A stretch of 57,660 nt of DNA from an uncultured Bacilli bacterium (GCA_947632455.1 CANRPK010000006.1:1-57660), one strand, 5' to 3'; positions 10,411-50,886 are shown, counted from the first letter of the stretch. Program-made: numbers and translations. The notes: a model not told the origin generated them from the sequence alone.

Positions 10411-11922
10411 TTATATGCTTGTTTTTACTACAAATGGATTATCAGATTTACCAGTACCTCCACTAAATTCAATATCAGCTCTTAAATTAACTACTGGACG
10501 CACACCATGAGTGCCATACATGCCCGCACCGCGAAAGAAGTCATCACTACGCACAAGGAACACGTCAGCCCAACCATCGACATTATAGCGAGAGGGAGAC
10601 ATTGTCCAATAATATTGGTTAGTATATAGCCAGTAGTTAGTTCCTACTGTTCCTCCGAAAGCACCTGTCATTACTACCTCATCACTTGTGATTAAGCCTA
10701 CTGGATTTGTAAGTATTTCATTACCTCTACCTGAACCAGAAGTTGTGAATAAATCTCTTTTGAATGCCTTTGCATCTATTTTATCAAAAGAACTAAATCC
10801 ATCCACATCTGTTGGATCTTCTTCAGGCATTACTACTCCACACTTTAATGTTGGATATTGATTTGTTCTCCAAGCTCCGCCTTTGGCAATCAACCTTGAT
10901 GCTGGCGCATATCCACTTGCAGACTGTCCTGTACCATCGCCATTGTAATTATTCCAATTTCCTTTTACTACTACTCTATCATTACACCATCCTGTACTCC
11001 CACTTAAATATTTAGTATATTCTGACATTGCTCCTGTTTCAGTATACCATCCATGAACAGCTTTTGCTATATCACTAGGAGTAGAGTTGGAATGAGTTTC
11101 TTCATAACTTGGATTTGGTTTTTCATCTGTGTGGGCTGTTCCATAATAATATCCTACATAGGTATTATCACTATATGATGTAGGTTTATAAGCAGAAGTT
11201 AAAGCGTTAGTTTCAATTCCTTCAGTTATCTCGCAATTTGGTTCTGCACATTGGAATATTAACCTTAATGTTCCATCTCCATTTATTCTGATTATTCTCC
11301 ATGTATGATTTGCAAATGTTACCCAATTATTTACATCATTATTATTTCCTCTAAACACATAACTGGTTCCATAATTGTCTGGACTGGTATATAATTTTTC
11401 TTTTCCTTCAGGATTTTCTGTATTTTCATTATATGGACCTGTGATTGGATTTGGCATGGCATCTATTGTATATTTACTTCCTTTTGAAGTTTCCAATTTG
11501 CCTAACATTTCTTTTACTAAACTATCAAAATATATATAACACTTTGTTCCTTTTTCGGTTAAATTTAAAACATTTATAACATTATTTTTATATTCTATTT
11601 CTACTTCTTCTATTGGTTCACCATTTACTTCACAATAACTATCTTCACTTAGTTTATATCCTATTGTAGGTATCTTATTTATACTTACATATTCCTTTTC
11701 TTCTTTAGTACTATCGTCTTTTTCTTGATACATTGCTATTATATTTAAATCTGCCTTATTATAACTTATATTTCCACTTGCTAGTTCTATACTTTCTGTA
11801 TTTCGATATCTTGCTAAACTTGTTATATAGTTTATTACTATTACTAGTCCTATGGTTAGTAATATCCCTATTATTATTCCCTTTACTTTGGAGGTATTAT
11901 CCTCCAACTTTTCTAATTTCAT
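10411..11922 (-). CDS. Secreted hypervariable protein, paralog 1 (putative DGR target with CLec-like C-terminus)
   Basis: N-terminal TM then TSLARY; WRIIRINGDG; YWTMSP-[variable]-GVRPVVNL; three paralogs in the window. Confidence 0.75.
   Translation of the reverse strand: MKLEKLEDNTSKVKGIIIGILLTIGLVIVINYITSLARYRNTESIELASGNISYNKADLNIIAMYQEKDDSTKEEKEYVSINKIPTIGYKLSEDSYCEVNGEPIEEVEIEYKNNVINVLNLTEKGTKCYIYFDSLVKEMLGKLETSKGSKYTIDAMPNPITGPYNENTENPEGKEKLYTSPDNYGTSYVFRGNNNDVNNWVTFANHTWRIIRINGDGTLRLIFQCAEPNCEITEGIETNALTSAYKPTSYSDNTYVGYYYGTAHTDEKPNPSYEETHSNSTPSDIAKAVHGWYTETGAMSEYTKYLSGSTGWCNDRVVVKGNWNNYNGDGTGQSASGYAPASRLIAKGGAWRTNQYPTLKCGVVMPEEDPTDVDGFSSFDKIDAKAFKRDLFTTSGSGRGNEILTNPVGLITSDEVVMTGAFGGTVGTNYWLYTNQYYWTMSPSRYNVDGWADVFLVRSDDFFRGAGMYGTHGVRPVVNLRADIEFSGGTGKSDNPFVVKTSI
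10497..10597 (-). repeat. Variable region VR1
   Basis: GC-rich ~100-nt block; differs from sister copies mainly at codon positions 1-2. Confidence 0.75.
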
Positions 11923-11978
11923 TGCTCTTATTCCCTTTCCATTATCAATATTATTAGAAATTCCTAATTTATATTTAA

Positions 11979-12007
11979 ATTATATACTCTGATATTATTA
12001 AAGTCAA
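11979..12007 (-). promoter_or_regulatory. sigmaA promoter of paralog 1
   Basis: TTGACT-17-TATAAT on the minus strand; intergenic block conserved with 14140-14220. Confidence 0.7.
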
Positions 12008-12078
12008 GAAAAATTCTAATATTTCTCAACTTATAAATTCTATTTATTATTTTATGAGAAAATTTTTTTGGTGATAAA

Positions 12079-12531
12079 ATGCTATATGAACGATTAAGAT
12101 TTATACGAGAACAGCACGAAATGACACAAACAGACTTAGCTAAAAAATTAGGCATTACAAAATCAGGATACTGCCGATATGAAAATGAAACAGATATTAT
12201 ACCTATTAAACACTTAATCATAATATCTGATACTTTTAATGTACCAATAGATTACATTTTTTCTCTTACTAATACCCTTCAATATGAAAATACCAATAAA
12301 GGAATAAACCAACAACTATCAGGCCAAAGATTAAAAACTTTTCGCAAAGATGCAAAATTTACTCAAGAAAAATTAGCTGAAATTTTAAATGTAGCTAGAA
12401 CAATAATATCAAAGTATGAAAAAGGAGAATACCCAATAGCTACACATACCCTATACACAATTTGCAAAAAATATAATATCTCTGCCGATTATCTATTAGG
12501 AAAAATAGACACTCCTAAATATTTAAAATAA
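12079..12531 (+). CDS. Tandem double XRE-HTH transcriptional regulator
   Basis: Two HTH_3-like repeats (RLRFIREQHEMTQTDLAKKLG; RLKTFRKDAKFTQEKLAEIL). Confidence 0.85.
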   Translation: MLYERLRFIREQHEMTQTDLAKKLGITKSGYCRYENETDIIPIKHLIIISDTFNVPIDYIFSLTNTLQYENTNKGINQQLSGQRLKTFRKDAKFTQEKLAEILNVARTIISKYEKGEYPIATHTLYTICKKYNISADYLLGKIDTPKYLK

Positions 12532-12568
12532 TATAAAAAGAATACCAAAAAAGGTATTCAAAAATAAT

Positions 12569-12612
12569 AAATATGCCTATACTTGGAATAAGAAAGCAGT
12601 ATAGGCATATTT
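12569..12612 (-). repeat. Conserved 3' stem-loop of paralog 2
   Basis: 15-bp perfect inverted repeat AAATATGCCTATACT/AGTATAGGCATATTT; sense loop GCTTTCTTATTCCA. Confidence 0.75.
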
Positions 12613-14127
12613 TTATATATTTGTTTTTACTACAAATGGATTATTAGATTTACCAGTACCTCCACTAAATTCAATATCAGCATTTAGATTTATTACTGGA
12701 CGCACACCAGAAAGGCTATGCACACCAGCGGTGTGGATGTTACCAGCTGCAAGCACATCGAACACGGCTGCCCAACCTTCGGGATAATTGTGAACTGGAG
12801 ACATTGACCAATAATATTGGTTTGTGTATAACCAATAATTAGTAGAAGTTGTACCTCCAAAGCCTCCTGCCATCACTACTTCATCAACCATAATTAATCC
12901 TACTGGATTTGGAAGTACTCCGTTACCTCTATTTGAGCCGATAGTCGTAAATAAATCCCTTTTTAAAGCTACTGGATCTATTTCATTAAAACTACTAAAG
13001 CCTTCTTCTTCTGAAGGATTTGTTTCTGGCATTTCTACTCCACATTTTAAAGTTGAATATTGAGTTTTCCTCCAAGAATTCTTTGCAAATAACCTTGCTG
13101 ATGGGGCATATCCTGTTCCACTTTGTCCAGTTCCATCTCCGGTGTAATTATTCATAACGTTTTTAACTACGGTTCGATCATTACACCATCCTGTATTTCC
13201 ACTTAAATATTTAGTATAATTGGTCATTGCCCCTATTCCAGTATACCAACTATCAACAGCTTTGGCTATATCACTAGGAGTGGAATTTGAATGAGTTTCT
13301 TCATATGTTGGATCTTCTTCACCTTTATCTGCTTTGGATGTTCCATAATAATATCCTACATAGGTGTTATCATCATTTGGTACAGACTTATAAGCAATGC
13401 CATCTACAGCGTTTGTGGTTGTTCCTGTTGTTTCTGTACAATTTGGTGTTGCACATTGGAATATCATTCTTAATGTGCCATCTCCATTTATCCTGATTAT
13501 CCTCCATGTATGATTGGCAAATGTTACCCAATTATTTACATCATTATTATTTCCTCTAAATACATAACTTGTTCCATAATTATCTTCGGTTGTATATATC
13601 TTCTCTTTTCCTTCGGGATTTTCTGTACTCTCATCATATGGTCCTGAGAATGAGTTAGGCATAGCTGTTTTTTCATATGTACTTTGTTTTATTGTTTCTA
13701 ATTTTGCTAACATATCTTCGGCTTTATAATCTAAGTCAAAATATATATAACATTTCGTTCCTCTTTTTTTAATATTTCCTACATATATTGCTCCTTCTCT
13801 ATATTCAATTTGAGCATCTTCTACTTTTTGATTACTAACTTCACAATAACTTTTATTACTTAATGTATATTTTTCAGTTGGTACATCATCTATTTGTTTA
13901 TAGCCATTTGTGCTATAACTACTTTCTTGGTACATCGCTATTATATTTAAATCTGCTTTATTATAACTTATATTCCCACTTGCTAGTTCTATACTTTCTG
14001 TATTCCTATATTTTGCTAGGCTTGTTATGTAATTTATTACTATTACTAATATTATTGCTAATATAAATCCTACTACAAATATTGTTTTATTTCTTTTACT
14101 ATCTGTATCTAACCTTTCTATTTTCAT
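12613..14127 (-). CDS. Secreted hypervariable protein, paralog 2 (putative DGR target)
   Basis: Same architecture as paralog 1; YWSMSP-[variable]-GVRPVINL. Confidence 0.75.
   Translation of the reverse strand: MKIERLDTDSKRNKTIFVVGFILAIILVIVINYITSLAKYRNTESIELASGNISYNKADLNIIAMYQESSYSTNGYKQIDDVPTEKYTLSNKSYCEVSNQKVEDAQIEYREGAIYVGNIKKRGTKCYIYFDLDYKAEDMLAKLETIKQSTYEKTAMPNSFSGPYDESTENPEGKEKIYTTEDNYGTSYVFRGNNNDVNNWVTFANHTWRIIRINGDGTLRMIFQCATPNCTETTGTTTNAVDGIAYKSVPNDDNTYVGYYYGTSKADKGEEDPTYEETHSNSTPSDIAKAVDSWYTGIGAMTNYTKYLSGNTGWCNDRTVVKNVMNNYTGDGTGQSGTGYAPSARLFAKNSWRKTQYSTLKCGVEMPETNPSEEEGFSSFNEIDPVALKRDLFTTIGSNRGNGVLPNPVGLIMVDEVVMAGGFGGTTSTNYWLYTNQYYWSMSPVHNYPEGWAAVFDVLAAGNIHTAGVHSLSGVRPVINLNADIEFSGGTGKSNNPFVVKTNI
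12699..12799 (-). repeat. Variable region VR2
   Basis: Aligns with VR1/3/4; shares a 24-nt exact match with the orphan copy at 31709-31812. Confidence 0.7.
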
Positions 14128-14174
14128 TCTTTTCCCTCTCTCAATATTATTAGAAATTCCTAACTTATATTTAA

Positions 14175-14203
14175 ATTATATACTTTGCTATACTCAAAGT
14201 CAA
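14175..14203 (-). promoter_or_regulatory. sigmaA promoter of paralog 2
   Basis: TTGACT-17-TATAAT on the minus strand. Confidence 0.7.
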
Positions 14204-14276
14204 GAAAAAGTTTCTATTATTCAGACTTAATAAAAAGAAAGATAGAAGTAATTTATAATTTAAACGGTGATTAAAA

Positions 14277-14759
14277 GTGGATTTAAGCAATACCTTAAAA
14301 AAGTTTTTTGAAGAAATAAAAGTAGTTCAAAACATAACCGCAACAAGCATTGCCAATTCTTTAAACATTTCCAAAAAAACCTTATCTAATTACATAAATG
14401 GAGATGCTTACATCCCACTTGAACATCTAAATACCATTAGTAACATTTTAAATATCTCTGTTGATTATATATTAGAATTATCTGACATAAAGCTACCCAA
14501 AAAAATCAAAAAAATCGATAATCTAAATGCTATCGATATTGGTACAAGACTAAAAAGTATTAGAAAAGAATTAAAACTAACCCAAGAAGAACTAGCTAAA
14601 ACTATTGGTATCAATAAATCTAGTATTAGCAAATATGAAAGTGGTAAAAATCTTATTCTTACCATATCTCTTTATACAATATGTAAAAAATATAATATCT
14701 CTGCCGATTATTTATTAGGTAAAACCGATAAACCTATTTATTTAAAAGAAACCAATTAG
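14277..14759 (+). CDS. Tandem double XRE-HTH transcriptional regulator
   Basis: Two HTH repeats; C-terminal LYTICKKYNISADYLLGK shared with 12079-12531. Confidence 0.85.
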   Translation: MDLSNTLKKFFEEIKVVQNITATSIANSLNISKKTLSNYINGDAYIPLEHLNTISNILNISVDYILELSDIKLPKKIKKIDNLNAIDIGTRLKSIRKELKLTQEELAKTIGINKSSISKYESGKNLILTISLYTICKKYNISADYLLGKTDKPIYLKETN

Positions 14760-14764
14760 CAAAT

Positions 14765-15817
14765 CTAATTGGCTTTTTTATCAAAATAATTAATACCTAT
14801 AGCGTCTCTTACTTCTTTTAAAGTATTTTGGGCAACTTTTCGAGCCTTCTTACTACCCTCTTCTAACATATTATAAACTAAATCTATATGTTCTTTATAG
14901 TAAGCTCTTCTTTCTCTCATTGGTTCTAATAATTCTTCAATTATAGCTAGTAAAAATTTTTTTACTTTAACATCACCTAATCCCCCTCTTTGGTAATGTT
15001 CTTTAAGCTCATCTAAATTTTTATATTCCGGTAAATATTTTTTAAAATGTTCATCAGTCGCAAACGCATCTAAATAAGTAAAAACTGTATTGCCTTCTAT
15101 TTTTCCTGGATCTTCTACTCTAATATGATTAGGATCAGTATACATACTCATTACTTTATTTTTTACTTCTTCTTTTGTATCAGATAAATATATACAATTA
15201 TTTAAAGACTTACTCATTTTAGCTTTACCATCTATTCCTGGTAATCTCGTACAAGCTTTATTATCCGCTAAAACAGCCTCGGGTTCTTTTAATATATTTC
15301 CATATAAATTATTAAAAGTATGAACTATTTCTTTACATTGTTCAATTAAAGGTAATTGATCATCCCCGACCGGTACTAAATCTGCTTTAAATGCTGTAAT
15401 ATCCGCAGCTTGACTAATTGGATATGTCAAAAAACCTACTGGCACAGCTTCTTTAAATCCTCTTTCATTTATTTCTGTTTTAATAGTCGGATTTCTTTTT
15501 AATCTTGCTAAAGTAACTAAATTCATATAATGAATAGTAAGCTCTGTTAACTCAGGTATTTGTGATTGCACAAAAAATGTTATTTTATTAGGATCTAAAC
15601 CCACGGCTAAATAATCTAATGCTACTTCTAATAAACTATTTCTTATTTTTTCAGGATTTCTCGCATTATCAGTTAAAGCTTGTAAATCAGCAATAAATAC
15701 ATACATATCATAATTACCTGTATTTTGAAACATAACTCTACTTTTAAGACTACCAACATAATGTCCTAAATGTAATTTTCCTGTTGGTCTATCTCCTGTT
15801 AATATTACTTTTTTCAT
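14765..15817 (-). CDS. trpS: Tryptophanyl-tRNA synthetase
   Basis: [13 protein letters not shown] (HIGH motif), VPVGDDQ, KMSKS. Confidence 0.96.
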
Positions 15818-15952
15818 TATATACCACCACCCAAATTATACCATGTCCACTCCAATAAGTAAATTATAAGCCTTAGTAAAAATAAAAATACCTAATGTCA
15901 AATAATTAAATTTCCAATACTATTTTTCAAAAATTTGCTATAATTATAATAG

Positions 15953-17074
15953 GTGGTATATATGGATGATAATAAAGGATTAAAAATAGTCTTAATAGTT
16001 TTAATAGTTTTAACTATTATTGTTTTTGCAGCCATAACATACTTATATGTATTTGATGATAAAGATAATTCTAGTAAATCCAATTATTCTAAGAAAGCTC
16101 AAGAAGTAATGAAAGAATATAATATTTATAATACTATAAATGATAAAGAATATTCTAAAACTTTAGAAGCCATATTAGAAGAAGATTTATATAATAATGC
16201 ATATTTAAATGAATATTATAATATTGATTATAGTTCTATTCCAGATTTTCCTAATATTATAACTAATTTATTAAATAAAGAATATAATAGTAATGAAATA
16301 AACTATATAATTAAGAATTATTCTAAAGATTTAAACATATTATTAGATATGGAACATATAGATATTTTACAATTTAAAGATATAACTAATTTTGATATAA
16401 ATAAATTAGAAAGATATTTACAATATCAAGATAATAATACTGATTATACTTTAGAACAATTAGTAACCTACGTAAATATTGGTCTAGATTTAAAAGGCTA
16501 TTCTAAATATGTAGAATATACCTCTGAAGAAGCTAAAGATTATAGTATATTAGTTAATAAGTATCATAAGTTACCGGATGATTATGAACCTGATGATTTA
16601 GTTTCATTAAGTTACAATTCTACTTATAAGCTAAGAAAAGAAGCAGCTCAAGCTTTTGAAAAGCTTACGGCCGCGGCTGTTTTAGAAAATGTTTATTTCT
16701 ATCCATTTAGCCCTTATCGTTCTTATGAAACCCAGAAAGTTCTTTACAATAGATATGTAGCTCGTGATGGTACTGAAAAAGCTGATACCTATTCTGCTCG
16801 TCCTGGTTTTTCTGAACATCAATTAGGACTTGCCGTAGATGTTCGAAGTTCTACTTTAACCGATAATTTAACTCCTGAACATTATGAATGGATGCTTAAT
16901 AATTCTTATAAATATGGCTTTATAGTTCGTTATCCAAAAGGTAAACAATATATTACCCAATTTATGGAAGAACCATGGCATATTAGATACTTAGGAGTTG
17001 ATCTAGCTACTAAAGTTCATAATTCCGGACTTACCTACGATGAATATTATGATTTATATTTAGAAACTCGTTAA
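15953..17074 (+). CDS. Membrane-anchored M15B D,D-carboxypeptidase (VanY/LdcB-like)
   Basis: N-terminal TM; SPYRSY..Q, SARPGFSEHQLGLAVD, EEPWHIRY. Confidence 0.88.
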   Translation: MVYMDDNKGLKIVLIVLIVLTIIVFAAITYLYVFDDKDNSSKSNYSKKAQEVMKEYNIYNTINDKEYSKTLEAILEEDLYNNAYLNEYYNIDYSSIPDFPNIITNLLNKEYNSNEINYIIKNYSKDLNILLDMEHIDILQFKDITNFDINKLERYLQYQDNNTDYTLEQLVTYVNIGLDLKGYSKYVEYTSEEAKDYSILVNKYHKLPDDYEPDDLVSLSYNSTYKLRKEAAQAFEKLTAAAVLENVYFYPFSPYRSYETQKVLYNRYVARDGTEKADTYSARPGFSEHQLGLAVDVRSSTLTDNLTPEHYEWMLNNSYKYGFIVRYPKGKQYITQFMEEPWHIRYLGVDLATKVHNSGLTYDEYYDLYLETR

Positions 17075-17112
17075 GAGTTTTTTTTATAAAAAAAACTACC
17101 TATTGGTAGTAA

Positions 17113-17370
17113 TTATCTAATTAAATCAGTTGGTAAACTATTTTCTTTGTTTTCTTCTTCTGTCTTAATTTTAGCTGTATCTAAGCTCATTAATTCCATA
17201 GCTCTATTATAAAGTGCTATCGCTTGTGGTTTTTTCTCTGGAGCTTGCATTACCATAAAATTAGCCGCAGATAATAAATTTTGAGCAAAAGTTAAATCTT
17301 GCATACTATCTAACTTATTACTAATTTTACTTAACTGATTAAATAATATATCTAAATTTTCCTCATTCAT
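17113..17370 (-). CDS. Hypothetical protein
   Basis: 85-aa ORF with AGGAGG RBS. Confidence 0.6.
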   Translation of the reverse strand: MNEENLDILFNQLSKISNKLDSMQDLTFAQNLLSAANFMVMQAPEKKPQAIALYNRAMELMSLDTAKIKTEEENKENSLPTDLIR

Positions 17371-17452
17371 TCTATATACCTCCTATAATAATTATAAATT
17401 ATTCATATAAAAAAAGTCTAGTAAAAAACCTTTACTAGACAATTATTTTATA

Positions 17453-17794
17453 TTAAACTAATTCAAGTTTAACAGCTAAAGCATCATCACCAACACGTTC
17501 TTTTAGTTTAATAATTCTAGTATAACCACCATTACGTGTTTCATAACGTTTAGCAAGTTCATTAAATACTTTATTTACTACATCAGCATCATTATATAAA
17601 AATGCTAATGCTTTTCTTCTTGCTACTAAAGTACCTTTCTTTCCATAAGTAATCATTTTATCAACAAATTTTCTTACTTCCTTAGCTCTTGCTTCAGTTG
17701 TAACTACAGATTCATTCATAATTACATCACGAGTAATATTAGCAAGGACGCTTCTTCTTTGTCTTGATTCTCTACTTAATTTTCTATATAACAT
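17453..17794 (-). CDS. rplQ: 50S ribosomal protein L17
   Basis: TTEARAKE, GGYTRIIK; follows rpoA. Confidence 0.97.
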   Translation of the reverse strand: MLYRKLSRESRQRRSVLANITRDVIMNESVVTTEARAKEVRKFVDKMITYGKKGTLVARRKALAFLYNDADVVNKVFNELAKRYETRNGGYTRIIKLKERVGDDALAVKLELV

Positions 17795-17806
17795 AATTTA
17801 GCCTCC

Positions 17807-18751: not shown

Positions 18752-18778
18752 ATTCTAATAACCCTTTCTTTTTCACAA

Positions 18779-31567: not shown

Positions 31568-31619
31568 TAAAAAAAATGCTGTTATAATCGCAGGTTATCT
31601 AACCTACAATATCAGCATT
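31568..31619 (-). terminator. Rho-independent terminator closing the region downstream of paralog 3
   Basis: Minus strand AATGCTG..TTGTAGGTTA GA TAACCTGCGA..CAGCATT followed by a T-run. Confidence 0.7.
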
Positions 31620-31708
31620 AAATATTAAAGTCTAAAACTAAGGACTAATCTTAGAACCAATTCTAACTATATTTAGTCTTAACCAAATATTTGAGTAAAA
31701 AGGTTATT

Positions 31709-31812
31709 GACGCACACTAAGACCAGTGTTACCCACGTGCGCAGCGCCGAGGATGCCATCATTATACACATCGAACACGGCTGCCCAACCATCGACCCAA
31801 TAGTGAAGCGGA
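31709..31812 (-). repeat. Orphan non-coding VR-like copy
   Basis: 104 nt TCCG...GTGTGCGTC aligning with VR1-4 only across the VR; flanks non-homologous; in-frame stops on both sides. Confidence 0.8.
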
Positions 31813-31844
31813 TCAAAAATACGTGCCTAGATTAACCCTGAAAA

Positions 31845-32081
31845 ATGCTTCCTCACGTGATACAACCCACGTGAAGAAAATGCAAAGTCGACAACAAACG
31901 TTGCCGACTATACCTGTCTTCAAAATATTATCTTGCAAAAATACTTTTGCAAATTTGGATATAATTCTTATATATAACTTTGGTGAGGCAGGTCCAAAAT
32001 GAAGAGTCATTTTGAACCACCAACACTACACTCCTTGAAGTGTCACTTTATTCGTAGTCTCACCTTAATGCGACTACGAAT
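31845..32081 (-). ncRNA. Candidate structured RNA (cluster of about six hairpins)
   Basis: Inverted repeats at 31849-31878, 31886-31909, 31933-31952, 31991-32018, 32028-32043 and 32050-32081; imperfect positions are G.U pairs on the minus strand. Confidence 0.5.
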
Positions 32082-33604
32082 GGACTACTAGATTTACCAT
32101 TACCTCCTGAGAATGTTGTATCAGCCTTCAGATTAACTACTGGACGCACACCATAAGCGGCACCAACGCCCGCACCCCAGAAGCGGCCATCAGTACGCAC
32201 ATCGAACACGCTAGCCGTCTTAACATCGACATCATAGCTCCACGGAGACATTGTCCAATAGTATTGGTTAGTATATAGCCAGTAGTTAGTTCCTACTGTT
32301 CCTCCAAATCCTCCAGCCATAGCAACTTCATCACTTGTAATAAGCCCTACTGGATTTGTAAGTACTTCATTACCTCTGCCTGAGTTTTTTGTTGTGAATA
32401 AATCTCTTTTGAATGCCTTTGCATCTATTTCATCAAAACTAGTAAATCCTTCTTCTTCAGTTGGGTCTGTTTCGGGCATTACAACACCGCACTTTAATGT
32501 TGGATATTGTTTTTTTCTCCAAGCTCCGCCTTTGGCAATCAATCTTGATGCTGGTGCATATCCACTTGCACTTTGACCTGTACCATCGCCATTGTAATTA
32601 TTCCAATTTCCTTTTACTACTACTCGATCATTACACCATCCTGTACTTCCATCTAGATAATCAGTATAATTTGTCATTGCTCCTGTTCCGCTATACCAAT
32701 TATCAACAACCGTAGCTATATTACTAGCAGTAGCATTTGAGTGGACTTCATCATAAGGTGGAGTTGGTTTTTCATCCGAATGCGCTGTTCCATAATAATA
32801 TCCGACATAAGTGTTGTCATCATATGGAGCTGGCTTATAAGCAGTTCCACCTACAGCGTTTGTAGTTGCTCCTTCAGTAGTTGTACAATTTGTAGTTGCA
32901 CATTGGAATATCATTCTTAATGTTCCATCTCCATTTATTCTGATTATTCTCCATGTATGCCCAGCAAAATTGACCCAGTTATTTACATCTTCATTGTTAC
33001 CTCTAAAGACATAACTAACTCCATAATTATCTGGGCTGGTATATAATTTCTCTTTTTTTTCGGGATTTTCTACATCTGCATTATATTGTCCAGTTATTGG
33101 GCTTGGCATTTTATCTATGGTATAGTTACTTTTCTTCACAGCCTCAAGTTTAGCAAGCATATCCTTAGCTGGAGCAAATTCATCAAGATAAATATAGCAT
33201 TTTGTATTGCTCTTGTTAACACCACTAAATGTTAAACTAAAACCATTATAATCTACACTTACTGTATTATCGCTATCAGAACCATAAACTTTTTGCTGTC
33301 CAACCTCACAATATGATTGGCCATTAATTTTATAATTACCGATTGGTACATCTTCTCTACCATAATCTCCTGTAAGCGTTCCATATTCATCTACATGCTT
33401 AACATTAACAGCAAGTAAATTAAAATCAGCTAGTGAAAAATTTACAGTACCTGATGCTAACTCAATACTTTCTGTATTTCTATACTTAGCATAGGAAAAA
33501 CATAAAGTAAGAACACCAACTAGAACAACGGCAAACAAGGAAATACCTAGGCTTAAACGTTTCCAAAACCTTTTTTTCCCTGACGATAATGTTTCAAATT
33601 TCAT
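32060..33604 (-). CDS. Secreted hypervariable protein, paralog 3 (putative DGR target)
   Basis: TM then SYAKYRNTESIELASG; YWTMSP-[variable]-GVRPVVNL; divergent N-terminal domain. Confidence 0.75.
   Translation of the reverse strand: MKFETLSSGKKRFWKRLSLGISLFAVVLVGVLTLCFSYAKYRNTESIELASGTVNFSLADFNLLAVNVKHVDEYGTLTGDYGREDVPIGNYKINGQSYCEVGQQKVYGSDSDNTVSVDYNGFSLTFSGVNKSNTKCYIYLDEFAPAKDMLAKLEAVKKSNYTIDKMPSPITGQYNADVENPEKKEKLYTSPDNYGVSYVFRGNNEDVNNWVNFAGHTWRIIRINGDGTLRMIFQCATTNCTTTEGATTNAVGGTAYKPAPYDDNTYVGYYYGTAHSDEKPTPPYDEVHSNATASNIATVVDNWYSGTGAMTNYTDYLDGSTGWCNDRVVVKGNWNNYNGDGTGQSASGYAPASRLIAKGGAWRKKQYPTLKCGVVMPETDPTEEEGFTSFDEIDAKAFKRDLFTTKNSGRGNEVLTNPVGLITSDEVAMAGGFGGTVGTNYWLYTNQYYWTMSPWSYDVDVKTASVFDVRTDGRFWGAGVGAAYGVRPVVNLKADTTFSGGNGKSSSPFVVALR
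32143..32246 (-). repeat. Variable region VR3
   Basis: Aligns with the other VRs; one extra codon. Confidence 0.72.
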
Positions 33605-42471: not shown

Positions 42472-42522
42472 TACTTTCTCACCTTTCCTAATATTAAAGT
42501 GAGCAAGTTTTGATAATTTATA

Positions 42523-43467: not shown

Positions 43468-43521
43468 TTAGCCTCCTATATCTAATAATATGAAGAGCGA
43501 GTGGAAAAAATTATATTCAAA

Positions 43522-44532
43522 TTATATACTTAAAAATTTTTTTAATATTCTTTTTATTTTATTATCCCGATTACTAATTTCTTCTTTTCTTTGTTTTAAA
43601 AATTCTTTATTAAGCCATAAAGGTAATTCATTATAATCAAAATATATTCCATCTAAAAGAGTATTTAAATCTATTTCTTCTCTTAAAGCTAAATGTAAAT
43701 CTTTCCAACTAGTAATTTCAAAATTATCTGAATTAGCACTATAATTATAAGCAAATAATTCTTTATCATCTCTATCTTTTAAATAAATCTTAAACTCCAT
43801 AAAATTACCTTTTAAATAAAATTTAGAATTAGTTGATTTAACATTCATTTCACTTAAATAAAAACTGCTATAACTGGTATATAATTTCTTAATCTTTAAT
43901 ATAGTATCATCTAAATAAGGTATAGGACTATTAATTACTACATCACTAACTAATTCAAAATTAATTTTATAAGATCTATCTAATTCAATAGTTACAACAT
44001 CAGTTTTATAATTATAAAATATATTTGATACAAAATGATTTTGACCACTTAGTTTTATTAAGTATTCTATTTCTTCTTTAATACTTAACTTAGCCATCTT
44101 AAATTCTCTGGCATATTTATCATATATTTCTTTAATTTGAAAAGCATTTACTTCTTTTATATTAGCAACTCTTAAGTTTAATAATAAACTTTTTAAATAT
44201 TTTAAAAAACTATTATCCCCCGTAATAGTTAAACAATTAGCCATTTTTTTATTCCAATCTTCACATTTTAATTTTTTAGAAGCTTCCACAATTAACAACT
44301 TCTTTTTAGTTATATAATAAATTTGATAAATTATTGCATGCTTATTTTCTTCAATAATCATTTTACTAATTTTATTTATATCTGCTATTCTTACATTATC
44401 TATAATGGTTAACTCTTTTAATTTTTTACAAGTAGGTAAAGTATCTACAATTAAAACTTCCCGATTTTTTAAATTATTATAAAATGTATCTATTACTTTC
44501 CTCATAAACATCACGGTAAAATAGTATAACAA
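43522..44532 (-). CDS. Hypothetical protein
   Basis: Long ORF, no recognisable motif; start uncertain. Confidence 0.5.
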   Translation of the reverse strand: MLYYFTVMFMRKVIDTFYNNLKNREVLIVDTLPTCKKLKELTIIDNVRIADINKISKMIIEENKHAIIYQIYYITKKKLLIVEASKKLKCEDWNKKMANCLTITGDNSFLKYLKSLLLNLRVANIKEVNAFQIKEIYDKYAREFKMAKLSIKEEIEYLIKLSGQNHFVSNIFYNYKTDVVTIELDRSYKINFELVSDVVINSPIPYLDDTILKIKKLYTSYSSFYLSEMNVKSTNSKFYLKGNFMEFKIYLKDRDDKELFAYNYSANSDNFEITSWKDLHLALREEIDLNTLLDGIYFDYNELPLWLNKEFLKQRKEEISNRDNKIKRILKKFLSI

Positions 44533-44611
44533 AGTTTAAAAAAAAAGTACACATTTTTCTTGTCAATTTAATCTTTAAAAGATATAATAATAAATAGAAT
44601 AGAGGGTAAAT

Positions 44612-45826
44612 ATGAAACAAACTTTAAAAAAAATGCCAATTAATAATAAACGTATACTCCTCCGCTGTGACTTTAATGTTCCTATCTCTAATGGTAATGT
44701 TTTAGATGAAACAAAAATCGTTAAAAGCTTAGAAACCATTAATTACCTATTAGAACATAATTGTAAAATTATTATAATGAGCCATTTAGGCCGGGTAAAA
44801 ACTGAAGAAGATAAAGCTAAATATTCTTTAGAACCAGTAAAAGCTGTTTTAGAAAAATATTTAAATCGTCCTATAATATTTGCTAAAGATATATTATCCG
44901 AAGAAACTAAAAATATAGCTCTAAATCTTAAACCTCAAGAAATACTTTTATTAGAAAATACTAGATTTTTAGATATCCCTAATAAATTGGAAAGTAATAT
45001 AAATGATGATACTGCTAAAGCTATTGCTTCTCTAGGTGAAATATTTGTTTTAGATGCCTTTGCTTCTGCCCATCGAGCTCATACATCTGTTGTTGGTATT
45101 GCTAAATATTTGCCTAATTGTATTGGTTTCTTATTTGAAAAAGAATTAACTATGCTTGAAAAATGTTTTTCTAATCCCCAAAAACCCTTTACTGTTATTA
45201 TGGGAGGCGCTAAAGTTGATGATAAATTAAACATCATTAAAAGTCTTTTGCCAAAATGTGATAATCTTTTAGTAAGTGGAGGTATTGCTAATTCCTTTTT
45301 AAGTGCCTTAGGTCTTAATGTAGGTTCTTCTCTTAAAACTGAAGATCATAATATAATTGAACAATTAAAAACTTTAATGTTGCAAAATAAAGAAAAATTT
45401 GCTTTTCCCCTAGATGCTGTTGTTGAAACTACTTTTGATAATGTTAAAGATCCTACTATAAAAAATATTAATCGTATTTCTTCTAATGATATTATCAAAG
45501 ACATTGGTCCTAAAACTATTAGCAAATATCACGAAATAATTAATAATAGTAAAACCATCTTCATTAATGGTACTATGGGTATTTATGAAGAAAAGCCTTA
45601 TAAAAATGGTACTACTGAAATATTTAATGCCCTAAAAAACTCTCCCGCTACTACTATTATTGGGGGAGGAGATACTATTTCAGCTCTAAATAATTTAGGC
45701 TTTGCAAATGCTTTTGAAAATATCTCTAGTGGAGGGGGAGCTACCCTAGAATATATTGCTAATGGTACTTTACCAGGCATTGAAGCTATAAATGAGGAAG
45801 AAAACATTGAAATACTTGATTTGTAA
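44612..45826 (+). CDS. pgk: Phosphoglycerate kinase
   Basis: RCDFNVP, SHLGR, LLENTRF, GGAKV, GGGD, SGGGA. Confidence 0.96.
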   Translation: MKQTLKKMPINNKRILLRCDFNVPISNGNVLDETKIVKSLETINYLLEHNCKIIIMSHLGRVKTEEDKAKYSLEPVKAVLEKYLNRPIIFAKDILSEETKNIALNLKPQEILLLENTRFLDIPNKLESNINDDTAKAIASLGEIFVLDAFASAHRAHTSVVGIAKYLPNCIGFLFEKELTMLEKCFSNPQKPFTVIMGGAKVDDKLNIIKSLLPKCDNLLVSGGIANSFLSALGLNVGSSLKTEDHNIIEQLKTLMLQNKEKFAFPLDAVVETTFDNVKDPTIKNINRISSNDIIKDIGPKTISKYHEIINNSKTIFINGTMGIYEEKPYKNGTTEIFNALKNSPATTIIGGGDTISALNNLGFANAFENISSGGGATLEYIANGTLPGIEAINEEENIEILDL

Positions 45827-46538
45827 TTTAAAAGCTAATAAAACTTATTATGAAATGGTTTTATATAAAGACTATTTACAAAATATTAATAATCAAAATA
45901 TTACTTTAATATTAGCTCCTAGTAATATTTATTTAAGCCTTTTTAAAGATGAAAATATTACTCTTTGTACTCAAGATTTATCTTTAAATGAAAACTTAAA
46001 CTTAACTGGTGATATTAATATTAATCAATTAAAAAGTTTAAATGTTAAATATAGTATTATTGGTCATTATGAACGTCGTAAATATTATCATGAAACAGCT
46101 AATAATATTGTAAGTAAAATTAAAATTGCTCTCAATAATGATTTAAAAGTTATTTATTGTATTGGTGAAACTATTGAAGAATTAAATCGTAAAATTGAAT
46201 ATCAAGTATTAGAAAAACAATTAGCTTGTGTTTTAAATAATATCCCCACTTCCGAGTTTTCTAATATTATTATTGCTTATGAACCCACTTATTTAATTGG
46301 TACCAATACTAATTATGATCTTGATAAAATTAAAACTACTATCAATTTTATTAAAAGTTTAGTTTATAATTACTATCATGAAAATATTAAAGTAGTCTAT
46401 GGTGGTAATTTAAATATCGATAATATTCAAGATTTTAATACTATATCAGAATTAGATGGCTATATTATTGGTAACTCTTCACTAAATCCTGCAAATATCC
46501 AAAAAATCTTAGAAAACATGACTTATAGAAACGAATAG
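45792..46538 (+). CDS. tpiA: Triosephosphate isomerase (divergent)
   Basis: NLK, IGHYERR, CIGE, AYEP, YGG; follows pgk. Confidence 0.88.
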   Translation: MRKKTLKYLICNLKANKTYYEMVLYKDYLQNINNQNITLILAPSNIYLSLFKDENITLCTQDLSLNENLNLTGDININQLKSLNVKYSIIGHYERRKYYHETANNIVSKIKIALNNDLKVIYCIGETIEELNRKIEYQVLEKQLACVLNNIPTSEFSNIIIAYEPTYLIGTNTNYDLDKIKTTINFIKSLVYNYYHENIKVVYGGNLNIDNIQDFNTISELDGYIIGNSSLNPANIQKILENMTYRNE

Positions 46539-46557
46539 TTTCTTTTTTTTACCCCAT

Positions 46558-46564
46558 TTCGACA
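46558..46564 (-). promoter_or_regulatory. Candidate Spo0A box upstream of spo0A
   Basis: TTCGACA (reverse complement TGTCGAA); near-match TGTCAAA at ~46590. Confidence 0.5.
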
Positions 46565-46678
46565 TCAATTTACAATAATTTACAAAACTTGTCAAAGTAT
46601 TTACTTGATACTACAATCTCTATGTGCTACAATAATCTTGCGTGTAGTAAATAAGTAACTGAATAAAAGGAGAAAAAA

Positions 46679-47452
46679 ATGGAAAACACAGTTAGAGTTC
46701 TAGTCGTGGATAATAATGAAAAAACCACTTCTAAAATTAAAGAACAATTTAGTAGTCACGCAGTAATCAAAGTAGTAAACACATTAACCAACGGAGAGGA
46801 AGCTTTGAATTACATTTTAAATAATCGTAATGATTTTGATCTTATCATTATGGATTTAATCCTTCCAGAAATAGATGGATTAACCATTCTCGAAAAGATG
46901 AAACAAGAAAATATAAAGAAAAAAGTAATAATAATAACTAGTCTAAAAAAAGATTATACCATTAATATGGCTAATAATTATGGTGTTAACTATTATATGT
47001 TAAAACCATTTAGTATGTTAGCCCTAGAAACTAGAATTTTAGATTTAACAAATAAAGATTTAATGAAATCTAAAGAATTAAATGAAACAGAAAAAGAAGT
47101 CCATGTTGCCATATCTAAATTATTACATCAATTAGGTATTCCAAGTCATATAAAAGGCTACACCTATATTCGCGAAAGCGTATTTCTATTTTATCAAAAT
47201 AGTGATGCTTATAGTGGTATCACTAAAGAAATATATCCCGAAGTTGCCCTTAGATATGCCACTACTGCTTCTCGTGTAGAGCGAGCAATTAGGCATGCTA
47301 TTGAAGTAAGTTGGACACGTGGGGATTATGATTTAATGGAAGAAATATTTGGCAATTCAGTCGCATTCGATCGTGCTAAACCAACTAATTCTGAATTTAT
47401 TGCTACTATTGCCGATCGTTTAAGATTTGATCGCAAACTCTTACATGTTTAA
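46679..47452 (+). CDS. spo0A: Sporulation master regulator Spo0A
   Basis: Receiver domain plus GIPSHIKGY, ITKEIYP, TTASRVERAIRHAIEVSW, KPTNSEFIA. Confidence 0.95.
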   Translation: MENTVRVLVVDNNEKTTSKIKEQFSSHAVIKVVNTLTNGEEALNYILNNRNDFDLIIMDLILPEIDGLTILEKMKQENIKKKVIIITSLKKDYTINMANNYGVNYYMLKPFSMLALETRILDLTNKDLMKSKELNETEKEVHVAISKLLHQLGIPSHIKGYTYIRESVFLFYQNSDAYSGITKEIYPEVALRYATTASRVERAIRHAIEVSWTRGDYDLMEEIFGNSVAFDRAKPTNSEFIATIADRLRFDRKLLHV

Positions 47453-47469
47453 GGCTTAAAGCCTTTTTT
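47451..47469 (+). terminator. Short terminator after spo0A
   Basis: AAGGCT TAA AGCCTT followed by a T-run. Confidence 0.5.
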
Positions 47470-47519
47470 AAATTGTTTTTTTCATATATTTATGTTATTA
47501 TGAATAGGAAGGTGAACTT

Positions 47520-49016
47520 ATGCGCAAAATCCTAACAGTAATATTAGATGGCTTTGGCTATCGCGAAGAAGAATATGGTAATGCTATTAAATTAGCAGAT
47601 ACTAAAAACTTCGATCGCCTTTGGGAAATGTTTCCTCATACCACTCTTTATGCTTCTGAAGAATATGTAGGACTAAATCCTAAAGAATTTGGTAATAGTG
47701 AAATAGGTCATATGACTATTGGCGCTGGTAGATTAATTAAACAGCATGGTCCTCGTATTACTGATTTTCTTAAAAACTATACTAGCAATGAAACATTTAT
47801 GGATATGCTAACTCAAGCTAAAATTCGTAAAGTTCATATAATGGGTTTATATAGTGATGGTAAAGTTCATGCTAATCTTGACCATTTTTTAAGTCTTTAT
47901 AATATATTACAAGAAAATAATGCTAAAGAAATTCATTTTCATTTAATAACTGATGGTCGTGATACTAAAGTAAATGCCGCGGTTAATTTCATCAAAGACT
48001 TAGAAGAAAAAATAAAAGAAAGTCCAAACGCTGATATTGCCAGTATATGTGGCCGTTTTTATGCTATGGATCGTGATACTAATTATAATAGAACCAAAGT
48101 ATATTATGATTTAATAACTAAAGGTATAGGTATTCCAGCTAAATCTGCTACTGATGGTATTTTAAATTTATATAAAAAAGATCAAACTGATGAATTTATC
48201 TATCCTATTATTGTTAATCCTAATGCTACTATTAAAAATGAAGATATAATAATTTGGATGAATTATCGAAGTGATCGTAGTAAACAAATTATGCGAGCAC
48301 TTACAAAACCTGATTTTAATGACTTTGCAACTTATAGATATACTAATTTAAAAGCATATTCTTTCTTTCCTATCGATAATGATATTCCAACTAAAAATTT
48401 CTTACAAGATATTGAAGTTAATAATTCTTTAGGAAGATATTTAAGTTCTTTAGGTATCACTCAAGCAAGAATTGCCGAAACTGAAAAATATGCTCATGTT
48501 ACTTATTTCTTTGATGGTATGTATAATAATAAAATTGATAAATGTGACAAAATATTAATACCATCCCCAAAAGTAGAAACATATGATTTAGCCCCAGAAA
48601 TGAGTGCCACCGAGATAACAAAAAAAACCATCACCGCGATGGAAAAAGATACAGATTTTATTTTAGTTAATTTTGCTAACCCAGATATGGTTGGTCATAC
48701 TGGCAATCTTGATGCTACCATGAAAGCTGTTACAACTGTTGACGTATGTTTAGGTCGCTTATATGAAGTTGCCAAAGATAATTTTTATACAATGGTTATT
48801 CTAGCAGATCATGGAAATGCGGATATAATGCTAGATGAATTTAATAACCCCGTAACTACTCATACAACAAGCAAAGTTCCATTTATTATAACTGATCCTA
48901 ATGTAACCCTTAAAAAAAGTGGGGATTTAACAAATGTTGCCCCAACTATTCTTGAATATATGGATATTGCCCTACCTCCAGAAATGGAAGATACCCAAAG
49001 CTTACTAACTAATTAA
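47520..49016 (+). CDS. gpmI: 2,3-BPG-independent phosphoglycerate mutase
   Basis: ILDGFG, GNSEIGH, GRFYAMDRD, ETEKYAHVT, DMVGHTG, ADHGN. Confidence 0.97.
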   Translation: MRKILTVILDGFGYREEEYGNAIKLADTKNFDRLWEMFPHTTLYASEEYVGLNPKEFGNSEIGHMTIGAGRLIKQHGPRITDFLKNYTSNETFMDMLTQAKIRKVHIMGLYSDGKVHANLDHFLSLYNILQENNAKEIHFHLITDGRDTKVNAAVNFIKDLEEKIKESPNADIASICGRFYAMDRDTNYNRTKVYYDLITKGIGIPAKSATDGILNLYKKDQTDEFIYPIIVNPNATIKNEDIIIWMNYRSDRSKQIMRALTKPDFNDFATYRYTNLKAYSFFPIDNDIPTKNFLQDIEVNNSLGRYLSSLGITQARIAETEKYAHVTYFFDGMYNNKIDKCDKILIPSPKVETYDLAPEMSATEITKKTITAMEKDTDFILVNFANPDMVGHTGNLDATMKAVTTVDVCLGRLYEVAKDNFYTMVILADHGNADIMLDEFNNPVTTHTTSKVPFIITDPNVTLKKSGDLTNVAPTILEYMDIALPPEMEDTQSLLTN

Positions 49017-49028
49017 TAGTTAGTTTTT

Positions 49029-49292
49029 TTATTTTAAAATACTTTTAGGATAAGGCCTTCTCTCATCAGTTCTACCCACTAAATAATCAATACTTGTATT
49101 ATAAAAATCAGCTAATATATTTATCTTTTCTAAAGGAATAATTCTCACTCCCAGTTCATATTCACTATAATATTGCTGAGTTGTATTTAATAATTTAGCA
49201 ATATCTTTTTGGTATAAATCATGGTCTTCTCTAATCTCTCTTAACCGTTCCACTTTCATACGTACCACCACAATTATTTTCTCATACATCAT
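49029..49292 (-). CDS. XRE-family HTH regulator (likely start MKVER near 49259)
   Basis: RLREIREDHDLYQKDIAKLL...YSEYELG...IDYLVG. Confidence 0.85.
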   Translation of the reverse strand: MMYEKIIVVVRMKVERLREIREDHDLYQKDIAKLLNTTQQYYSEYELGVRIIPLEKINILADFYNTSIDYLVGRTDERRPYPKSILK

Positions 49293-49302
49293 TTATAATG
49301 TC

Positions 49303-49357
49303 TTGACATACACAAAATTTAATGTATAATAAAAATATATACACGATATATAATGTA
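49303..49357 (+). promoter_or_regulatory. sigmaA promoter of paralog 4 with two operator-like repeats
   Basis: TTGACA-16-TATAAT; TACACAAAATTTAATGTA (49309-49326) and TACACGATATATAATGTA (49340-49357). Confidence 0.65.
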
Positions 49358-49368
49358 GGAGGAAAAGA

Positions 49369-50886
49369 ATGAAAATAGAAAGATTAGATACAGATAGTAA
49401 AAGAAATAAAACAATATTTGTAGTAGGATTTATATTAGCAATAATATTAGTAATAGTAATAAACTATATAACTAGTTTAGCAAGATATAGGAATACAGAG
49501 AGTATAGAACTGGCAAGTGGAAATATAAGTTATAATAAAGTAGATTTAAATATAATCGCAATGTATCAAGAAAGTAGTTATAGCACAAATGGTTATAAAC
49601 AAATAGATGATGTACCAACCGAAAAATATACATTGAGTAATAAAAGTTATTGTGAAGTAAATGGCGAACCCATAGAAGATGTAAATATAAATTATGAAGA
49701 AGGTTCATTAGGTGTAACAAATATCAAAAAAAGAGGAACAAAATGTTATATATATTTTGACTTAGATTATAAAGCAGATGATATGTTAGCAAAATTAGAA
49801 GCAATAAAACAAAGTGAATATACCATAGATGAAATGCCAAACCCAATTACTGGAATGTACAACGAACAAGAAGAAAACCCAGAAGGAAAAGAAAAATTAT
49901 ATATCAGTCCAGATAATTATGGAACCAGTTATGTGTTTAGAGGCAACAATGATGATGTAAATAACTGGATAACATTTGCCAATCATACATGGAGAATAAT
50001 CAGAATAAATGGCGATGGCACATTAAGATTAATATTTCAATGTGATAAACCAAATTGTGAAATAACAGAAGGGGCAGAAACTAATGCTTTAACTTCTACA
50101 TATAAATCAGAACCATATGACGATAATACCTATGTCGGCTACTATTATGGAACAGCCAAAGCAGATAAAGGAGATACTGGAGATCCAACATATAGCGAAG
50201 CACATTCCAACTCTACACCTAGTAATGTAGCAAAAGCTGTCGATGGCTGGTATACTGGAACAGGAGCCATGACAAATTATACAAACTATCTAGATGGAAG
50301 TACAGGATGGTGTAATGATAGAGTAGTAGTTACTAAAGTCTGGAATGGATATGAAAGCGATGGTACAGGACAGTCTGCAAGTGGATATGCCTCAGCTTCA
50401 AGGTTGATTGCCAAAGGTGGAGTTTATAGAACAAAACAATATCCAACATTAAAATGTGGGGTTGTAATGCCTGAAGAAGATCCAACAGATGTAGAAGGAT
50501 TTAGCAATTTTGATGAAATAGATACTAATGCTTTAAAAAGAGATTTATTTACTACCAAAAACTCAGGTAGAGGTAACGAAATACTTACAAATCCAGTAGG
50601 TTTAATTACTAGTGATGAAGTCGCTATGGCTGGAGGCTTTGCAGGAACAGCAGGAACTAGCTATTGGTTATATACTAACCAATATTATTGGACAATGTCT
50701 CCGTATCACTATTATCTCGATGGTTGGTCAAGCGTGTTCGATGTGTATGGTGATGGCGGCCTCTGGGGTGCGCGCGTGTATTACCCTCTTGGTGTGCGTC
50801 CAGTAGTTAATCTGAAGGCTGATATTGAATTTACAAGTGGAACAGGAGCATCTTCTAATCCATTCGTAGTAAAAACAAACATATAA
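49369..50886 (+). CDS. Secreted hypervariable protein, paralog 4 (putative DGR target)
   Basis: N-terminus nearly identical to paralog 2; YWTMSP-[variable]-GVRPVVNL. Confidence 0.75.
   Translation: MKIERLDTDSKRNKTIFVVGFILAIILVIVINYITSLARYRNTESIELASGNISYNKVDLNIIAMYQESSYSTNGYKQIDDVPTEKYTLSNKSYCEVNGEPIEDVNINYEEGSLGVTNIKKRGTKCYIYFDLDYKADDMLAKLEAIKQSEYTIDEMPNPITGMYNEQEENPEGKEKLYISPDNYGTSYVFRGNNDDVNNWITFANHTWRIIRINGDGTLRLIFQCDKPNCEITEGAETNALTSTYKSEPYDDNTYVGYYYGTAKADKGDTGDPTYSEAHSNSTPSNVAKAVDGWYTGTGAMTNYTNYLDGSTGWCNDRVVVTKVWNGYESDGTGQSASGYASASRLIAKGGVYRTKQYPTLKCGVVMPEEDPTDVEGFSNFDEIDTNALKRDLFTTKNSGRGNEILTNPVGLITSDEVAMAGGFAGTAGTSYWLYTNQYYWTMSPYHYYLDGWSSVFDVYGDGGLWGARVYYPLGVRPVVNLKADIEFTSGTGASSNPFVVKTNI
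50700..50800 (+). repeat. Variable region VR4
   Basis: 101 nt, ~54% GC by manual count; aligns with the other VRs. Confidence 0.75.

Follow-up and report, generated by a model that had tools for sequence, protein, structure and literature searches.

Target genes in the window and across the genome

The window examined here, a 57,660-nt stretch of DNA from an uncultured Bacilli bacterium (GCA_947632455.1 CANRPK010000006.1:1-57660; ~28% GC), carries four paralogous genes, P1 to P4, whose products end in a variable repeat (VR) resembling those rewritten by diversity-generating retroelements (DGRs), and one non-coding cassette that resembles a DGR template repeat (TR). Open reading frames (ORFs) were called in the window and the paralogs aligned (Table 1). 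The predicted proteins of 503 to 514 residues are 65-73% identical relative to P1. Conservation extends through YW(T/S)MSP and resumes at GVRPV, and these two anchors enclose a divergent, GC-rich block of ~100 nt. This agrees with a first-pass annotation made from the sequence alone, which had described four ~505-aa paralogs and whose coordinates for the block proved right to within a few bases of the template-homologous stretches. As seen in P1, the protein is composed of an N-terminal hydrophobic helix, a beta domain and a large DUF6273-like domain that ends in the VR, and the target proteins are predicted to be membrane-anchored or secreted.

The genome to which the window belongs (G000) is a 1.54-Mb metagenome bin of 126 contigs with ~28% GC and 1.6% contamination. 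A tblastn search with P4 returned 42 rows, 40 of which represent genes of the family or pieces of them (the remaining rows are a 57-aa local match and a cassette), and 38 complete VR-bearing C-termini were extracted genome-wide; what had been taken for a four-member family is thus far larger, its 38 genes occupying ~57 kb, about 4% of the genome. The VRs fall into 21 that are GC-rich (at least 45% GC) and 17 that have drifted to the AT-rich composition of the genome. Mean column entropy in the GC-rich VRs is 1.18, 1.09 and 0.86 bits at codon positions 1, 2 and 3, with single codons reaching 1.87, 2.00 and 0.00 bits, and the 69 conserved codons directly upstream show the ordinary pattern of 0.62, 0.61 and 0.95 bits, in line with the earlier remark that positions 1 and 2 vary around a nearly fixed position 3. 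Across 703 paralog pairs the mean identity is 0.73 upstream of the VR, 0.54 within it and 0.77 downstream, and VR identity is lower than upstream identity in 699 of them; P3 and its closest paralog, C47_413, have flanks that are 96% (upstream) and 90% identical around a VR that is only 59% identical. Of the 21 GC-rich VRs, 13 retain the exact 3' boundary GTGCGTCCA, against only 4 of the 17 AT-rich ones, which suggests that the family holds both live and decayed targets.

Table 1 Features of the window (positions without prefix) and of other contigs of the same genome (positions with contig name)
Feature	Location	Strand	Description
Target gene P1	10411-11922	-	503 aa; ORF and alignment
VR of P1	10495-10599	-	template-homologous stretch, TCTCC...GGTGTGCGTCCA
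Target gene P2	12613-14127	-	504 aa; ORF and alignment
VR of P2	12697-12801	-	template-homologous stretch
Target gene P3	32060-33604	-	514 aa; ORF and alignment
VR of P3	32141-32248	-	template-homologous stretch; 89% identity to cassette C20:23302
Target gene P4	49369-50886	+	505 aa; ORF and alignment
VR of P4	50698-50802	+	first ~38 nt identical to cassette C20:25952
VR 3' flanks with GTTAATCT, examples	10474-10494, 32120-32140, 50803-50823		also at other VRs
Window cassette (putative TR RNA gene)	about 31571-31838	-	~220 nt downstream of P3; nhmmer 31574-31839, E 3.8e-34
Window cassette, 5' stem strand GGGTTAATCT	31829-31838	-	sequence and predicted fold
Window cassette, TR-like segment	31707-31812	-	VR-homologous, in codon register
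Window cassette, structured 3' domain	31638-31721	-	two predicted helices; covariance model R1, E 1.7e-13; compensatory changes in this copy
Window cassette, 3' stem strand AGATTAGTCC	31642-31651	-	followed by terminator hairpin with T run
Cassette array	C20:22541-26118		12 units; runs to contig end
Cassette array	C35		6 units
Cassette array	C9		3 units
Cassettes	C37		2 units, one split by a 1.58-kb insertion
Single cassettes	C10, C38, window		1 each
MutS-like (MSL) ORF	C29:4398-4883		162 aa; MutS_I match
Avd ORF	C29:4864-5220		119 aa; overlaps start of reverse transcriptase ORF
Reverse transcriptase (RT) ORF	C29:5201-6322		374 aa; RVT_1 E 2.6e-20, phrog_1423 E 1.4e-81

Template cassettes

BLASTN of the VRs against the whole genome returned matches confined to the variable block, without the gene flanks, that lie in tandem arrays with ~300-nt spacing. 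Searches with nhmmer and with a covariance model built on the 3' domain identified 26 non-coding cassettes of ~270 nt, and this count is a lower bound (at least 26) because arrays, that on C20 included, reach contig ends. All 26 lie on contigs other than C29, the contig of the RT. The first-pass annotation had proposed one template, placed outside the window; instead there are at least 26 stand-alone template units, one of them within it.

The 5' part of the cassettes in the C20 array comprises, in this order, a box resembling TGnTATAAT, then GGTTAATCT, then a short spacer. The middle is a segment of ~105 nt in codon register with the VRs that terminates in GGTGTGCGTCCA, and the 3' part is a conserved stretch of ~70 nt up to ACAAGATTAAYC, followed by an AT-rich hairpin and a T run. 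The GC-rich 3' boundary GGTGTGCGTCCA is common to cassette templates and VRs and the homology stops there, making it a putative counterpart of the initiation of mutagenic homing (IMH) sequence. In the RNAalifold prediction from 24 units, GGTTAATCT pairs over a long range with AGATTAAYC to form a closing stem, the 3' domain contains two helices, and the terminator forms a stem in which compensatory changes are numerous. In an alignment of 27 sequences from 12 species of the genus, the 22 pairs of three helices are 97.6% paired, as against 22-50% in slid controls; compensatory change occurs in 8 of the 22 pairs, and none of 500 shuffles reached the observed values. Base-pair covariation thus supports the predicted fold of the cassette RNA. 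TATAAT, with at most one mismatch, precedes the stem by 6-8 nt in 19 of 24 cassettes of this genome and in 26 of 27 in the multi-species set.

In the window cassette the -10 box is degenerate and the TR has lost 1 nt at its 3' end; this unit may depend on read-through from P3 or be decaying. Between the P3 stop codon and this cassette lies an inverted repeat (cttcacgtg...cacgtgagg aag; 31851-31875, minus strand). In the split cassette, model positions 1-142 are found at C37:46-185 and positions 136-298 at C37:1768-1942, and the ~1.58-kb insert between them (C37:185-1768, locus L011) holds a 145-aa ORF on the opposite strand. The codons after GVRP in the targets (V-V/I-N-L) often read GTTAATCT, an 8-mer of the 5' stem strand of the cassette RNA, and the 3' stem strand could pair with target DNA just beyond the VR. 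The idea that GTTAATCT serves in target recognition was dropped: by hand count, AATCT follows 15 of the 21 GC-rich VRs and 9 of the 17 AT-rich ones, which is not a significant difference.

The enzyme module on contig C29

A search of the genome with Pfam RVT_1 found six places, all outside the window, in agreement with the initial reading that the window lacks an RT. Five of them, on C64, C36, C42, C90 and C40 (loci L001 and L003-L006), were set aside because their contigs have 38-52% GC against ~28% for the genome; these contigs probably entered the bin as contaminants or represent foreign mobile elements, outside the DGR system. The sixth belongs to a native operon (C29:4398-6322) of three overlapping ORFs, encoding MSL, Avd and RT, so that the DGR-class RT and Avd that were to be sought elsewhere in the genome were both found, with a MutS-like gene in addition. 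All three reading frames are intact.

The RT contains the motifs IGNMSSQ and YMDD; RTs of the DGR clade are marked by [LIV]GxxxSQ in motif 4 and by YxDD. The libraries searched held no DGR-specific RT model, so the clade assignment follows from the motif and the Avd neighbour, and on these grounds the C29 RT is DGR-class. The Avd ORF matches bAvd (E 3.2e-9; 37.7 bits, cut-off 40), DivGenRetAVD (E 8.6e-9; 35.7 bits, cut-off 80) and phrog_3206, 'Avd protein of DGR' (E 3.5e-13). Inspection of the intergenic regions of C29 and BLASTN with the VRs gave nothing VR-like beside the RT, and the reading of a single TR adjoining it was rejected. Two family genes lie directly upstream of the operon, with a small, putatively helix-turn-helix-like ORF between them (C29:1138-1623, minus strand; judged by reading the sequence), and the end of the contig (10995-11949) corresponds to the 5' 914 positions of a 16S ribosomal RNA (rRNA) gene.

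Conservation in congeners and sister genera

The protein family was found in all 24 congeners searched, with 17-73 matches each, and in none of 16 genomes from other genera of the same draw. An RT ortholog, mostly 72-83% identical, is present in 36 of 43 congeners (several are pseudogenised, and seven congeners gave no match), and cassette DNA is present in 39 of the 43. At nine RT loci of relatives that were examined, the MSL-Avd-RT operon is intact in every case, Avd is 89-95% conserved, the RT carries IGNM[ST]SQ, and no cassette lies beside it. The ratio of nonsynonymous to synonymous substitution rates (dN/dS) for the RT is 0.06-0.14, and by this measure the operon is kept under purifying selection across the genus. 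The loci with RT orthologs derive from gut metagenome-assembled genomes with labels that include uncultured Bacilli, Tenericutes or Mycoplasmatota, 'Mycoplasma sp. CAG:776' and 'Candidatus Caccenecus avistercoris'. Dozens of target paralogs are seen in congeners whose RT is undetected or stop-riddled (G014, G004, G015, G016, G052, G011 and G058; G049, G009, G012 and G047), which suggests that the enzyme has been lost repeatedly while the repertoire persists; some of these RTs may go unseen only because an assembly is incomplete.

The cassettes of the relatives are classical AAY-rich templates with 7-15 AAY codons each, and the genus-consensus template (...GCT AAC GTG TTC nnT GTG AAT ... GAT GGC AAC CTC AAC AAC nAC AAC GTG AAT AAC ACT AnT GGT GTG CG...) bears a close likeness to the AAY-rich template that the first-pass annotation had reconstructed from the VRs. 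Both an RT, on C29, and A-rich templates, in related genomes, are therefore at hand. In congener G002, which has 7 cassettes and 29 VRs, the 18 GC-rich VRs differ from their best templates by 421 mismatches, of which 310 fall at a template A (rates of 0.56 at A and 0.11 elsewhere) and the VR has the A in only 32. One G002 VR, compared with the first cassette of the array just downstream, shows almost exclusively A-to-N changes, except in one boundary codon.

Sister genus G220 of the same family (locus L137) has an RT 49% identical to that on C29, in the order target (717 aa), TR (302 nt downstream of the VR), MSL, Avd and RT. The TR has its own closing stem (GGTTGATCT...ACAAGATTGACC), and all core differences between TR and VR are at TR adenines. 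Since the homologous unit is here a canonical TR beside the RT, the cassette is the DGR RNA of this lineage, and sequence comparison indicates that in the genus of the window it has risen in copy number and become detached from the RT. Target copies in five sister genera number 1, 2, 2, 5 and 30. In the genus with 30 copies of the target domain (G206, locus L138), no TR/VR repeat of at least 40 nt lies within 6 kb of the RT, so an architecture both split and expanded may have more than one origin or may predate the genus of the window. Of 60 genera sampled in the family, 25 possess a related RT. Among 150 genomes scored class-wide, the 3'-domain model had matches in just two, those belonging to this genus, and in none of 12 other genera of the family.

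Fold of the target proteins

The AlphaFold2 model of P4 (48 homologs; predicted local distance difference test score 88.9) has a helix at residues 10-38, a disordered segment at 39-60, a beta domain at 62-132 and a large domain at ~150-505, with the VR in the last strands. The C-type lectin (CLec) fold that the first-pass annotation had anticipated was not recovered, and Foldseek against the PDB gave nothing (best E 0.14). Against BFVD, Foldseek found DUF6273 phage proteins (E 2.8e-5 to 3e-3), although template modelling (TM) scores of ~0.2 allow a distant relationship at most. Pfam DUF6273 (PF19789) scores 15.4, 13.3 and 19.1 bits in three of the four window proteins, under the gathering threshold of 23.5; these sub-threshold matches (E 0.0013-0.078; 0.017 for P1) cover the last ~45 profile positions, at the VR. 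Some homologs have a precomputed PF19789 match, the more than 1,000 homologs are essentially all unnamed, and look-alikes in the ESM Atlas are hypothetical Bacillota proteins and DUF6273 clusters. A near-invariant motif, A-[KR]-Y-R-N-T-E-S-I-E-L-A-S-G, occupies residues ~38-52 in all paralogs and across the genus, in the low-confidence linker after the hydrophobic helix. It has no family match and could be a candidate processing or anchoring signal.

A probable split DGR acting in trans

We consider it quite likely that the ~38-40 target genes are diversified by one chromosomal DGR of split architecture, in which the templates are detached from the RT; the first-pass proposal that an RT acts from elsewhere on a chromosomal multi-target network is accordingly supported, with the C29 operon as the candidate source. 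The MSL-Avd-RT module, alone on C29, would act in trans, and the templates would be at least 26 separate small RNA genes, single or in arrays of up to at least 12, each with its own -10 box and terminator. RT-Avd is predicted to bind each cassette RNA through the 3' domain and to copy it with misincorporation opposite adenines, after which the complementary DNA (cDNA) would replace a VR by way of the shared boundary GGTGTGCGTCCA and 5' homology. Given the large numbers of different templates and of targets, this would rewrite the ligand-binding tips of a large surface repertoire. In repeated rounds, partial cDNAs would rewrite VRs and, less often, cassettes, and homologous recombination may contribute.

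In the genome of the window, A at codon positions 1-2 has a frequency of 0.318 in cassettes and 0.246 in VRs (Wilcoxon p 0.002), AAY codons make up 18% and 8%, respectively, and a mosaic-copying model places A in the cassette at 164 mismatches and in the VR at 75. The cassettes vary among themselves at the same codons as the VRs, and each holds 0-9 AAY codons. Relative to the genus-consensus template, these cassettes are changed at 54% of consensus-A sites and at 9-33% of other bases, and in the adjacent 3' domain all bases are changed at 8-13%; relatives' cassettes show the same bias more weakly (0.20 at A, 0.02-0.13 at other bases). The preferential change of consensus-A sites means that the template segments themselves carry an adenine-biased footprint, and this loss of adenines suggests that templates are occasionally overwritten too. 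Because the templates here are A-depleted and diverse, the adenine rule holds weakly in this genome.

Several results weigh against a split DGR. When VRs and cassettes were paired by best identity, 1113 mismatches comprised 285 with A in the cassette, 340 with A in the VR and 488 with A in neither; no VR has an adenine-only relation to any assembled cassette, and the best whole-length identities are 50-89%. Picking the template that minimises non-A mismatches, a choice that favours the DGR hypothesis, gives rates of 0.56 at A and 0.25 elsewhere. The proposed adenine-mutagenesis footprint thus stands in its codon pattern and in the relatives, but not as an adenine-only relation in the genome of the window. 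The within-population data are assembled contigs of one sample at ~5x, on which paralogs cross-map: of six public runs, none of them of RNA, the four that cover most of the window come from this sample, labelled rabbit gut metagenome, and their variant letters arise largely from cross-mapping paralogs and relatives, the best supported of those listed lying outside the two VRs compared and being uninformative either way. A generic promoter and terminator scan of the C20 array was at chance in this AT-rich DNA (23 promoter-like sites, 22.0 expected), and Rfam, run on the C20 array and C29, matched only 16S rRNA and one chance-level small RNA. Transcription of the cassettes is for both reasons only inferred, the argument for a promoter being the positional conservation of TATAAT. 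The Avd scores lie under the curated Pfam and NCBIfam cut-offs, and neither the AlphaFold2 model nor the structure searches yielded a CLec fold. Finally, the arrays touch contig ends in a 126-contig assembly, so that some templates have probably escaped the assembly and repeats may be joined wrongly; templates lost in this way could explain part of the noise.

A DGR that diversified the family in the past and is now a fossil, so that the differences are inherited and the A-depleted templates and 17 AT-rich VRs reflect decay, seems improbable to us. It would account for the low AAY content of the cassettes relative to those of congeners, for the scarcity of exact GTGCGTCCA among the AT-rich VRs, for the congeners that retain dozens of paralogs with an RT pseudogenised or undetected (such as G014, G049 and G012) and for the defects of the window cassette. 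Against it, the RT, Avd and MSL frames of this genome are intact and under purifying selection, 21 VRs are still GC-rich in a genome of ~28% GC and keep the pattern of a fixed third position, the VR of P3 has diverged from that of C47_413 between nearly identical flanks, and cassette helices are maintained by compensatory changes, in the window copy as well.

We judge it very unlikely that the cassettes are silent donors and that segmental gene conversion, with no part played by reverse transcription, alters the VRs, as in the donor-cassette antigenic variation systems of some pathogens. Tandem donor arrays look like silent-cassette loci, the mismatches in this genome are not adenine-only, and exact mosaic blocks exist: the first ~38 nt of the P4 VR, 7 adenines included, equal C20:25952, and its 3' half resembles another cassette with mostly A-to-N changes, while P3 shares unusual stretches with C20:23302. 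Silent donors, however, need no -10 box, terminator or covarying 3' RNA domain; the differences in G002 and G220 obey the adenine rule; the RT-Avd-MSL operon is conserved along with the cassettes across the genus; and the homologous unit in G220 is a canonical TR adjoining the RT. Recombination may nevertheless add to the mosaicism.

Ordinary paralog divergence under diversifying selection, or an artefact of assembling a repeated family in a fragmented bin with some contamination and several probably foreign RT-bearing contigs, can practically be dismissed, as it is already contradicted by codon entropy (selection does not randomise codon positions 1 and 2 while fixing the third), by adenine mismatch rates, by the dozens of congeners, each assembled independently, in which the genes, the cassettes and the RT operon recur, and by the non-coding copies of the variable block.

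Comparison with known DGRs

In the nearest counterpart, G220, the MSL-Avd-RT operon, the target C-terminus (YWTMSP...GVRPVVNL) and the closing stem are alike, but one target and one TR form a single cis cassette, whereas the genome of the window has 26 TR units detached from the RT and ~38-40 targets. The DGR of Bordetella phage BPP-1 is likewise a single cis cassette, on a phage, with RT and Avd, a structured 3' region of the TR RNA, adenine mutagenesis, a GC-rich 3' boundary common to TR and VR, and the VR at the C-terminus of a binding protein. Here the TR/VR homology ends at a 12-nt GC-rich boundary and does not run into a longer shared IMH, and no RNA similarity to BPP-1 was seen by sequence or in Rfam.

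The published comparisons that follow draw on parts of the cited papers. MSL genes, always with avd, are a known DGR accessory class (Wu et al. 2018, PMC5758913), and the Legionella pneumophila DGR of this class is, as here, chromosomal with MutS-like, Avd and RT genes (PMC5758913); the present system differs in having no template at the RT locus, in its own genome or in any of the nine relatives, and in its target domain. Treponema denticola has a DGR with 7 remote targets, and 8 tandem or 7 remote targets are given as the record numbers (PMC5758913); the Thiohalocapsa PB-PSB1 DGRs have 15 targets in 9 loci (PMC10907252). TRs usually adjoin the RT, with one TR per functional RT locus in Treponema and Thiohalocapsa (PMC5758913, PMC10907252). 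Both act in trans on scattered chromosomal targets, as is proposed here, but in our case one RT operon is accompanied by dozens of diverse TR genes in arrays and by several-fold more targets in a 1.5-Mb genome. Phage DGR targets with DUF6273 carry the VR at the C-terminus of that domain (tentaclins, PMC10743442; Faecalibacterium prophages, PMC11792537), and the weak sequence and Foldseek likeness to the window proteins is at the same VR-bearing end; the proteins described here are, unlike these, cellular, predicted to be membrane-anchored, about 505 aa long and provided with an extra N-terminal beta domain. We found no literature on TR arrays or on a DGR in this lineage, though the supplementary tables of DGR surveys, outside our search, might list these RTs. 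What is new is the architecture, a putatively trans-acting MSL-Avd-RT operon with ~40 targets and dozens of stand-alone template units that are structured, have terminators of their own and bear marks of having been diversified as well.

Implications

A further possibility, which we put forward tentatively and hold to be rather less likely than not to prove right in full, is that the cassettes form a heritable, evolving library into which mutagenised cDNA or VR sequence is occasionally written back; such write-back is conceivable because the cassettes share the 3' boundary of the VRs. There would then be a slow tier, in which about 26 or more template RNA genes duplicate and change with an adenine bias, and a fast tier of ~40 targets, each target able to draw on any template, with template choice and partial cDNAs giving rise to mosaic VRs. 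No known DGR would have more targets and templates relative to the size of its genome, at about 4% of 1.5 Mb. A two-tier library of this kind might, equally tentatively, be likened to a germline segment repertoire.

DGRs in the parts of the literature cited are compact, with one template per RT and up to ~15 targets (PMC5758913, PMC10907252). In the genus described here, one conserved operon would serve dozens of template RNAs, presumably transcribed independently, and ~40 target genes, an arrangement inherited vertically among uncultured, small-genome gut Bacilli. If active, it would be a natural multiplexed DGR in which the recognition by RT-Avd of template RNA supplied in trans, the self-targeting or protection of templates, and the mapping of templates to targets could be tested. 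Pipelines for finding DGRs seek TR/VR repeats near an RT (in the part of PMC8144416 drawn on), and detached templates are a blind spot for them. For the organisms themselves, the finding means that reduced genomes devote several percent of their DNA to a variable surface repertoire.

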